Position numbers: made by a program. A DNA stretch of 64,000 nucleotides from Escherichia phage ETEC-TG. The stretch lies in the sequence record OR786310.1. One strand, written 5' to 3'. This document shows, in pieces, positions 54,001 to 57,000 of this stretch; position 1 is the stretch's first letter, and every line of letters starts with the position of its first letter.

Positions 54001-57000
54001 ATAAGCTAGTTCAATAGGTTGCATTGCCATTTTTGTGTAGTGATCACCGTCAACCTGATTATCAAAAGCATTAGACATAATTTTCCTCCTGAATTCCTAC
54101 TGCGCCTTCTTCTGGGTAATCTGTATAATAAGCTACCCTACCTTGATAGATAACATCACCATCATCATTGTAGATTGCTGTATCTTCTTGAATTGTTATT
54201 TCAACGTCAAGTAAATCTGGGTCTTTCTCGATGGTATAGTTTAAACCTAACATTTCAAACAGTTCGAAAATTTCGTTACCTGTTAATGTAATGCTCATAT
54301 TTCCTCCTTTTATTGTGGTTAGCAGAGTATACACTAATATCAAATTTTTGTCAATAAAAAAGGGAGCAATAAGCTCCCTGATTATTAGATTCCAATAATA
54401 GTTGCTGCTCGTTTATCTTTGGATCTGGTGTTTGCTCTACTACGTGACAAACCTCCACAAGATTCACAACGAATGATATCGAAAGAACTTACCGCAGTGT
54501 GGTATTGCTTACCAGTAACAACGTGAACATGATCACTGCCGCAACGAGAACAACGGACTTTCTCATCTGGGTAATAAGCGGATAAGTTAGGATGCTGTGG
54601 AATCCACGGAAGGATTTTCATATACAAATCACGAAGTGAAACAACATCACCATCATTGTAAATCTGCATACGTTCAAAAGCATCACGATCACCTTCACAA
54701 CATGCTTTCCATAAAGGGAACCCCTCGTTATCCAGTTTTTCACTTTCTGTTTCAAAATACGCTCCCATCTCTTTAAGAGAATTGGAAGGAAGTGCAAACT
54801 GTTTCTTAGCTGCCTTCAAGGTATCAACAACTACATAGTTAGAAGGTGGAGCCATATCATGATATGCGAAGCGTTGGTTAATGTATGCACGGTCAAACTT
54901 GTACCCATTGTGAGCCACAACAACATCAGCTTCATTCAGAAGATTCCAAAGATCTTGGCAAAGTTCCCAATCATCTGTATGATCGATATCGAAAAGAGGA
55001 TAAGAAGATAAGTTCTTACCTTCTACTTCACCTGTATACAAATCAGCAGAAGAGTAAGATAACAAATAACCCCTACGAATTACCTGGTCTGGAGAAATGA
55101 AGGCTTTGAATCGACGGAAAGTATATGCAATCTCTGGTGCAGTTTCAACATCAATAATTTTAATAACTGGTTGTTTCTTTTTAACTGGCTCTTGTTTACT
55201 TGCACCGAAACGTGCAAGAAAATCATTTACTGTGCTTTTTCTTGTTGGACTACCTAAAACAATTGCTGCAATATTGCGAGAAGACATACCCTCTGCACTC
55301 ATACTAAGGATATCTGCTTTCTGCTCTTCTGTTAATCTGCTCACTCTGCCTCCTGTTGTGAGATGTATGACTGAAGCATACTCTCAAATGTTGTATCGTC
55401 ATTATCCCAGCGTTTCATGTATACCAACTGGAAAATTGTTTCTATCCATTCATCTGTTGTCATATGGACTTCTTCTCCATCCCAAGAAGTAAAATTAACG
55501 CCATCTGGGAACCACGAGTAGTAAGTATCTTTAACTGTTTGGAAAAGTTCTGCTTGAGTTTTACAAGCTGAAAGAAGATTAAAACAAGTAATATCTCCGA
55601 ACTTAATATCAAAATCTTGATAAGGTCGGATACTATCTGTTTTATCTCCCATTAGCATCTGATAGGCTAACCAATAACTTCCCCAACCTTTAACTTCTTT
55701 CTTTTTACCTTTATCTACGATCCATATGTCGCCAATAGACTCGTCAATAAGAATTATATCTGGATTTTTAAATACTCCATCCTCTTTGTAGAAATTAAAA
55801 AGGATACTAGGAGTATGTAAACTATCTTTATCTATAGACACTACGATATAAGAAAATTTACCCGTCCTTTTATAATCTTTATAACCTTGGAAACCATACT
55901 TCTCTAACTCATCGTCAGCCTCTATTACAGTAACAACATCACCATTGTGGAACTCCACAAGATAATCTTTGGTTTCTGAAAGCTGAAGTGGTTTGATATC
56001 TAATCGTTCAGATTTATATTCTACAGGCATTTTGAAGGCGTGTCTGAAAGTTTTTCCTACGCCAATAACTCCGCAATATTTTTCTAAACGTAGATGTTTT
56101 AGAATACCTAAGACTTTTGTTTTAGCTGCTTGGAAGGTGTGTCCGATATCTTCTGGCGGGTATTGCTTATCAATAATTTCGAACTCTTCCTTTGTGAAGG
56201 GACGTTTGTTTTTGGAGGCTCTTTCTGCATTTGTATCTCCTAGCCAACCTCCAATTTTAGTCTTACTTTTACCCCAAAACTCTGTCTTATTTTTAAATTC
56301 CTTTTGAGCACCTGAAGGGATGTGCTTCGCAATGATTGTTCTTTTCTCTAATGCAGACGCTGCTTGGAAAGCGATCTGATCATAATCAATTGCAGCTATT
56401 GTTTCTTCGTTGACATATAAATGAAGATCTTCAGGTTTAATTAAAATATAACCGCTAATATTTCCCCCCTAATTATTCATCGTCATCCTCTGTTGAGAAT
56501 GTTTTAGTATACGGACATTGACGACTTTTCGGGATTGCTATAACTTCATCTTGGTTAGCGTTAGAATAGTAGCAATATTTTGTGTTGCCATTAACTTCAG
56601 GATCAGACAAGATTAAAGTAATTTGACCTGCTGCTACTGTGAAACTAAAAGCTAAAAGAACGACTGTCAGAATCTTTTTCATAACGCCTCCTAAAAAGCC
56701 TACCTCATTAAGTAGGTAGGCATAATATCATAACTAATCCCGCAAGTCAAGAACTTATTTAAGGATTGTTGCTTTGGTTAAATCTTCCATCAGACCTCGA
56801 ATCTCATTGAAGCACAGAAGGACTGAAGCTTCAATACTACCTTCTTCGTCTGCAAAATATTTCGGAAAACGTAGTTTAGAAAGTTTAAACTCTTTATCCA
56901 CTACAAAATCTACAACACCGTCATATTCAAGACCGATTGCAACCACATCTTTACCATCTTCTTTTAGTTCGACAGCTTTAGACTCATATAAGGATTCTTT

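Follow-up and report, generated by a model that had tools for sequence, protein, structure and literature searches.

Initiation of translation at codons other than ATG, GTG or TTG is known in Escherichia coli from infC and pcnB, both of which start with AUU and which are the only confirmed natural non-canonical starts of this organism (bioRxiv 10.1101/063800). AUA, AUC, AUU and CUG make up the near-cognate class, which supports 1-2% of AUG initiation in E. coli, and an N-terminal methionine has been verified for an AUC start (bioRxiv 10.1101/063800); other reporters gave 5-7.5% of AUG (PMC5499595) or values 6-8-fold below AUG (PMC3592434). The infC codon, AUU or AUC, is conserved, lies just past the stop codon of the preceding gene and is the target of autoregulation by initiation factor 3 (IF3) (PMC5499595; PMC3592434). 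Here we report on a gene of Escherichia phage ETEC-TG (OR786310.1), located in a stretch of 64,000 nucleotides (nt) hereafter called the window, which encodes a predicted flap endonuclease of the FEN superfamily and whose reading frame offers no ATG, GTG or TTG over its first 146 codons. The gene resembles infC and pcnB in that a near-cognate AUU is served by a Shine-Dalgarno (SD) sequence and follows shortly after the stop codon of the gene before it and, as for infC, the non-canonical codon is phylogenetically conserved within its clade. It differs from both in encoding a phage replication nuclease and in that AUU, AUC, AUA and CUG replace one another across the clade; unlike in infC, no IF3 autoregulatory logic is evident, and the start is here a prediction from sequence. 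A precedent for IF3-dependent control by a non-canonical start is Streptomyces sigR, the GTC start of which is reportedly repressed by IF3 and which differs from the phage gene in codon class, organism and gene function (PMC5472188).

With regard to the product, the closest described nucleases are T5 D15, T4 RNase H and the bacterial FEN/ExoIX enzymes (PF02739/PF01367), which have in common with it the motifs FRH..YK..R, EADD, DKD and GDxxDN and an N-terminal aspartate that ends the first strand. Compared with these enzymes, the phage protein (372 aa as proposed here) carries an insertion of about 60 aa after the first helix and further insertions elsewhere; it has no Pfam match and its relatives stay below the Pfam threshold. 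The genes for T4 RNase H (rnh) and T5 D15 start with ATG. Homologues are the "putative exodeoxyribonucleases" of rV5, PVP-SE1 and PBES 02 (Vequintavirinae), ICP1, Nankokuvirus and Barbavirus, which belong to the same family over their full length with 30-43% identity and an equivalent N-terminus; their genes start with TTG, GTG or ATG, whereas AUH (AUA, AUC or AUU) and CUG starts are found only in a clade centred on Stephanstirmvirinae. From comparison of the phage gene with these relatives we propose, with a probability of about 0.85, that its translation begins at an ATT placed 4 nt past a G-run SD, which would give a protein of 372 aa.

Results

A 375-codon frame without a canonical start in its N-terminal part

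The window derives from a phAPEC8-like E. coli phage (Phapecoctavirus, Stephanstirmvirinae), and the 2 kb around the nuclease start are 98-99.8% identical to 64 Phapecoctavirus genomes. An earlier note on this DNA had described a frame of 375 codons, 146 of them devoid of ATG, GTG and TTG, and this is borne out by reading and translating the minus strand from 56480 to 55341: the frame 56468..55341 stays open for 375 codons, from TAG 56471-56469 to TGA 55343-55341, and its first canonical start, ATG 56030, is codon 147 counted from the proposed ATT. The 5' end of the frame reads TAGGGGGGAAATATT, while the 146 codons upstream of ATG 56030 encode ...IAAIDYDQIAFQAAS.... The SD-like G-run followed by ATT that had been pointed out is likewise present, as AGGGGGG, 4 nt and ATT, with the correction that the run counts six G in the window versus five or seven in near-identical phage genomes. 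What did not hold is the statement that the frame opens right after the stop of the upstream gene: the TAG is an in-frame stop only, and the upstream open reading frame (ORF), of 69 aa, ends in another frame with TAA 56475-56473. The features of the locus are collected in Table 1. A scan of the 64-kb window for stop-to-stop frames of 100 codons or more turned up no second real gene with a long stretch free of canonical starts; five other matches in the same scan are shorter frames, which were taken as antisense or chance matches without individual checks.

Table 1. Features of the nuclease locus, with positions in the window
Feature	Position	Strand	Remarks
FEN-like 5' nuclease, proposed full coding sequence	55341..56459	-	372 codons, ATT 56459-56457 to TGA 55343-55341; open frame, homology, purifying selection, predicted FEN fold
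Proposed initiation codon ATT (AUU)	56457..56459	-	only near-cognate codon at proper SD distance; homologous near-cognate codons in 24 relatives
Shine-Dalgarno-like AGGGGGG	56464..56470	-	spacer to the ATT is AAAT 56463-56460; relatives have GGAGG or AGGAGGT here
In-frame TAG opening the nuclease frame	56469..56471	-	not the stop of the upstream gene
Asp25-Tyr-Asp27 codons, N-terminal acidic motif IDYDQ	56379..56387	-	Asp25 56387-56385, Asp27 56381-56379
First canonical start ATG (Met147)	56028..56030	-	used by most database records; no SD upstream
EADD motif, Glu180-Asp183	55911..55922	-	alignments, profile alignments
DKD motif, Asp210-Asp212	55824..55832	-	alignments, profile alignments
GDKTD, helix-3-turn-helix metal/DNA-binding motif, Gly271-Asp275	55635..55649	-	alignments, profile alignments
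Upstream 69-aa ORF, predicted secreted peptide, phrog_4641	56473..56682	-	TAA 56475-56473 lies 13 nt before ATT, in another frame
DnaQ-like "DNA polymerase exonuclease subunit" gene	54385..55344	-	GTG 55344 overlaps the nuclease stop (GTGA, 55341-55344)

A near-cognate codon is conserved behind the Shine-Dalgarno sequence

In order to compare starts, 5' regions were gathered from viral contigs, metagenome contigs, contigs encoding database homologues and GenBank records. They yielded 24 distinct start contexts from relatives about 50-100% identical, with ATT in nine, ATC in nine, ATA in five, CTG in one and a canonical start in none. Each of the 24 consists of GGAGG (GGGGG in Phapecoctavirus), 4-5 nt and then the near-cognate codon; GGAGG with this spacing occurs in 22 of the 24, and the window has AGGGGGG with 4 nt. 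A near-cognate codon is thus conserved at the exact position across a deep clade. By neighbour joining, the AUH/CUG sequences group together in a single clade, marked by repeated switches between near-cognate codons and by a single nested TTG lineage (L038), and all sampled outgroups (Vequintavirinae, Nankokuvirus, Barbavirus, ICP1 and a Pectobacterium phage) start with ATG, GTG or TTG at the equivalent N-terminus.

Upstream of the ATT, translation in this frame is impossible. In four relatives (L013, L024, L025 and L027) an in-frame TAA abuts the ATC on its 5' side, which closes the frame to translation from any point further upstream. The distance between SD and start is kept among relatives while the reading frame of the SD is not, and the SD thus behaves as a ribosome-binding site (RBS) rather than as coding sequence. 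Furthermore, near-identical Phapecoctavirus genomes have five G (six sequences), six G (the window and vB_EcoM_01) or seven G (BI-EHEC) in the run, and as such indels would destroy any frame, the G-run must be untranslated. The stop of the upstream gene is found 8-15 nt from the AUH codon in relatives, often overlapping the SD (TAGGAGG), and this even where the preceding gene is a methyltransferase instead of the small secreted peptide.

The same data bear on the possibility that recoding, either by readthrough or by a frameshift at the G-run, joins the upstream 69-aa ORF to the nuclease in a fusion protein. The upstream stop is just 13 nt off, with five G both ORFs share a frame with a single TAA between them, and one metagenome gene call reports a 444-aa fusion. 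The relation of the two frames, however, shifts with the five, six or seven G of near-identical genomes, in some relatives the ORFs are separated by a double stop (TAG..TAA), in one (L047) a methyltransferase gene takes the place of the upstream ORF, the upstream product carries a predicted signal peptide, and the 444-aa call is an artefact (see below); we therefore regard recoding as very improbable. Less credible still is a missing start due to a sequencing or assembly error, or a pseudogene. The G-run length in the window differs from that of several relatives and homopolymers are error-prone; yet no G-run length creates a canonical start, and the start-less architecture recurs in records of Phapecoctavirus (64) and Justusliebigvirus (56) as well as in numerous metagenome contigs of independent origin. 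Against a pseudogene speak the intact ORF and the purifying selection acting on it. Out of the three explanations offered in the earlier note, AUU initiation therefore gains strong comparative support, and recoding and sequence error are both rejected.

Initiation might also take place at a later AUH, namely the ATT of codon 5 (56447-56445) or codon 7 (56441-56439), both of which are in frame in the window and are ATT, ATA or ATC in closer relatives. These codons sit 16-22 nt from the SD, and in distant relatives with an AUH start (L014, L015, L035-L037, L046 and L047) neither position is AUH any longer, in contrast to the codon next to the SD. Moreover, codons 2-4 (Ser-Gly-Tyr) change only synonymously, which implies that they are translated, and a later start is consequently unlikely, if somewhat less so than recoding.

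Several observations were made on the start region itself. Variation of the G-run (56464-56469 in the window; also L001-L003, L008, L021 and L052-L054) changes the spacing between SD and start from 4 to 6 nt, and it could reflect either sequencing errors in a homopolymer or genuine differences that modulate translation. Two contexts (L031 and L040) have an out-of-frame ATG abutting the SD, about 5 nt upstream of the ATT (TAGGAGGATGTT ATT), which opens an ORF of about 17 codons and is probably too close to the SD for use. RNA folding at the start gave a modest z-score of -2.3. In the window and in the rest of the near-identical anhysbys genome, no convincing further gene with a strong SD, a near-cognate codon behind it and no canonical alternative was found.

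The N-terminal 146 codons are coding

Codons 2-146 were compared with those of six closer relatives, giving proportions of nonsynonymous differences (pN) of 0.16-0.25 and of synonymous differences (pS) of 0.69-0.82, values comparable with the C-terminal part; against the two most distant relatives pN is about 0.35. For codons 2-23 alone, the six closer relatives give pN 0.08-0.28 and pS 0.66-0.97. The residues (Ser)-Gly-Tyr-Ile-Leu-Ile after the proposed start display synonymous changes only among closer relatives (GGT/GGG/GGC, TAT/TAC, ATT/ATA/ATC, TTA/CTA/TTG). The first 146 codons are thus coding, and the predicted fold depends on them.

These results weigh on the annotation of most GenBank records, in which translation starts at ATG 56030 and a 229-aa product would be functional. 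This ATG is the first canonical start in frame and is the one used by gene callers and by NC_052656.1, OR437326.1, PP129558.1, OL505078.1 and OL739525.1. On the other hand, no SD precedes it, more remote homologues have Leu or Thr in place of its methionine, the 146 codons before it are under purifying selection, and the homologues of other phages are full length with a canonical start at the equivalent N-terminus. The 229-aa product would start past the codons for Asp25, Asp27 and the first strand and helix, and would thereby lose part of the predicted active site, including the invariant D25, together with the initial strands and helices of the FEN core. We consider the use of ATG 56030 as the functional start highly doubtful, to the same degree as recoding.

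The product is a predicted divergent FEN-type nuclease

The 372-aa product is predicted to be a flap endonuclease/5'-3' exonuclease, the separate primer-removal and recombination nuclease of the phage, and its gene is placed between rdgC and a gene for a DnaQ-like exonuclease. Full-length homologues were found by tblastn in 1,214 phage records, with matches that run from about residues 1-20 to the end; most of these records, for instance those of rV5, PVP-SE1, ICP1 and PAK_P1-like phages, are labelled putative exodeoxyribonuclease. The PHROG family 107 "exonuclease" matches residues 13-370 (E 1e-55). In Pfam no meaningful match was obtained with the full, N-terminal or C-terminal translation of the window protein, and relatives reach 24-28 bits against PF02739, below its gathering threshold of 34.3. 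On sequence grounds, the nuclease is a divergent branch of the FEN/5'-3' exonuclease superfamily that is recognised by PHROG 107.

In profile alignments with the Taq 5' nuclease and the plastid exonuclease 9l56, the motifs FRH..YK..R, EADD, DKD and GDxxDN line up in order, with weak E-values of 0.02-0.08; since profile searches of the PDB by sequence remained this weak, a comparison of folds was needed. An AlphaFold2 model built from an input alignment of 23 homologues has a mean predicted local distance difference test score (pLDDT) of 90.7 and displays the PIN-like alpha/beta fold with the helix-3-turn-helix module of the FEN superfamily; residues 16-37 form the first strand and helix of the modelled fold. 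In alignments reaching down to 30% identity D25, E180, D182, D183, D210, D212, D272 and D275 are invariant. D25 is so in all four alignments, and D27 is invariant in two (A1 and A3) and nearly so in a third (A4). The FEN-type identity given earlier is upheld by the model, the profile-aligned motifs and the invariant N-terminal aspartate, and so is the layout in which the central and helix-3-turn-helix motifs (EADD, DKD and GDKTD) lie downstream of ATG 56030 and the N-terminal aspartates, Asp25 and Asp27, upstream of it.

In the profile alignment Gly133 (window positions about 56061-56063) is matched to the Asp of the usual "FD" metal-binding motif (VVFD in Taq). The composition of the metal site may differ from that of classical FENs, with Gly in place of the "FD" aspartate and two aspartates (D25 and D27) at the N-terminal motif.

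Neighbouring genes and elements

The product of the 69-aa ORF resembles a signal peptide at its N-terminus and ends in a conserved acidic stretch (CPYTKTFSTEDDDE); for its homologue in phi92, gp086, the annotation gives a signal peptide predicted by SignalP. Within a replication/recombination block such an ORF is an unexpected neighbour. On the other side of the nuclease, the DnaQ-like gene has its own AGGAGG (55349-55354), 4 nt upstream of its GTG, and given this SD and the GTGA overlap, coupled as well as independent translation would be possible. A promoter-like site (TTGACT, 17 nt, TATTAT with TG) lies at 56750-56722 on the minus strand between rdgC and the 69-aa ORF, and is followed by a strong hairpin with a T-run (GCCTACCT...AGGTAGGC TTTTT) at 56721-56698 on the same strand. 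A terminator is annotated hereabouts (56698-56750) in the Schickermooser record. These elements may mark a transcription-unit boundary just upstream of the pair formed by the small ORF and the nuclease.

Annotation of the nuclease in databases

Eight of the nine GenBank records that were inspected lack the catalytic N-terminus. Five Phapecoctavirus records start the nuclease at ATG 56030, the curated record of phi92 starts gp085 at an internal GTG with the remark "No RBS identified; weak Prodigal statistics", the ECGD1 record likewise uses an internal GTG, and the PATM record splits the gene and adds an antisense ORF. The GenBank entry KX552041.2 (ESCO13) annotates a coding sequence from the same ATT together with a ribosome-binding site. 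In our literature searches no description of the start codon of the nuclease was retrieved, and the ESCO13 genome announcement is silent on it; nor did the literature searched for these phages yield proteomic or profiling data on the nuclease N-terminus.

Canonical starts selected by gene callers in the clade (TTG in P0003, ATG in P0025 and P0027) were examined and discarded, as they are internal codons 5-10 residues downstream of the SD-plus-AUH start. The 444-aa fusion call (P0005, L044 501-1835, Logan contig SRR30397360_28145) proved to be a gene-calling artefact: the Q in the protein corresponds to a TAG in the DNA. Apparently a code with TAG reassigned had been applied by the caller, and the artefact could mislead homology searches. 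In addition, short antisense or out-of-frame "hypothetical protein" ORFs, which are probably spurious, fill the unannotated N-terminal part or its surroundings in PATM (L051 962-1186) and in L053 and L054 (98-493 and 1109-1231).

Discussion

The mechanism that we propose is as follows. The ribosome would bind the G-run SD and set the AUU in the P site, where initiator fMet-tRNA would pair with it through a mismatch at the third position, as expected from established bacterial initiation, and the product would begin fMet-Ser-Gly-Tyr-Ile-Leu. The combination of a weak codon with an SD of maximal strength would be kept by selection, as its evolution suggests, and the SD may partly compensate for the codon. 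Such a weak start would hold the nuclease to a few per cent of the level reached with AUG, or tie it to the level of IF3 or to translation of the upstream gene. An ATG is one transition away from ATA and one transversion away from ATT or ATC, yet it does not occur in the clade, although the third position alternates between T, C and A; this suggests selection against a strong start. Overproduction of FEN-type nucleases is toxic. The weak start is probably kept to hold synthesis of the nuclease low or regulated.

Some points count against initiation at this AUU or against the reason suggested for it. The spacing of 4-5 nt between SD and start is at the short end of the usual range. In closer relatives the isoleucine codons 5 and 7 are also AUH, and from the sequence a slightly later start is therefore possible. 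A third position without G is equally expected of an ordinary conserved internal isoleucine codon, and for this reason the argument rests on the abutting stops, the indels in the G-run and the geometry of the SD. Finally, selection for low expression is what we infer from the pattern, and infC shows that a gene starting with AUU can be well expressed (PMC5499595).

More speculatively, the near-cognate start could be a regulatory device and not just a brake on expression, by which the nuclease would be tied to host IF3, guanosine tetraphosphate (ppGpp), temperature or translation of the upstream gene, and which would make it the phage counterpart of infC control; we hold this to be a tentative and rather unlikely extension of the proposed AUU start. 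If true, the start would set the ratio of nuclease to polymerase during infection, and it might act together with the phage's own initiator-like tRNA-Met.

The latter is one of two tRNA-Met(CAU) genes of the phage (L049 10618-10696; anhysbys 110618-110696), is common to Phapecoctavirus and Justusliebigvirus and is called tRNA-fMet in the EmilieFrey annotation. It displays the initiator marks of an A1xC72 mismatch (1:72) and A11:U24, and does not have the three consecutive G:C pairs of the anticodon stem. These three pairs are the ones inspected by IF3. The other tRNA-Met resembles an AUA-reading tRNA-Ile2, to judge by the E. coli ileX sequence, and the phage tRNA-Ile(GAU) looks like an ordinary elongator. 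Within the window no tRNA genes were found.

Near-cognate initiation was already known from infC and pcnB, and one database record already uses the ATT; the phage nuclease is a further and unusually deeply conserved example. A core replication nuclease is annotated too short in most records, and about 120 Phapecoctavirus and Justusliebigvirus genomes, several of them from phages proposed for therapy or biocontrol, share its architecture. The truncated calls that were inspected suggest that gene callers limited to ATG, GTG and TTG miss similar genes. For E. coli ribosomes the gene offers a rare natural case in which evolution has swapped among exactly the four codons of the near-cognate class, in a clade that reaches down to about 50% protein identity and avoids ATG and GTG entirely, with TTG in one nested lineage only. 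It is a natural experiment which argues that a weak start can be selected for, and why such a start persists in these phages is a testable question raised by the nuclease gene.

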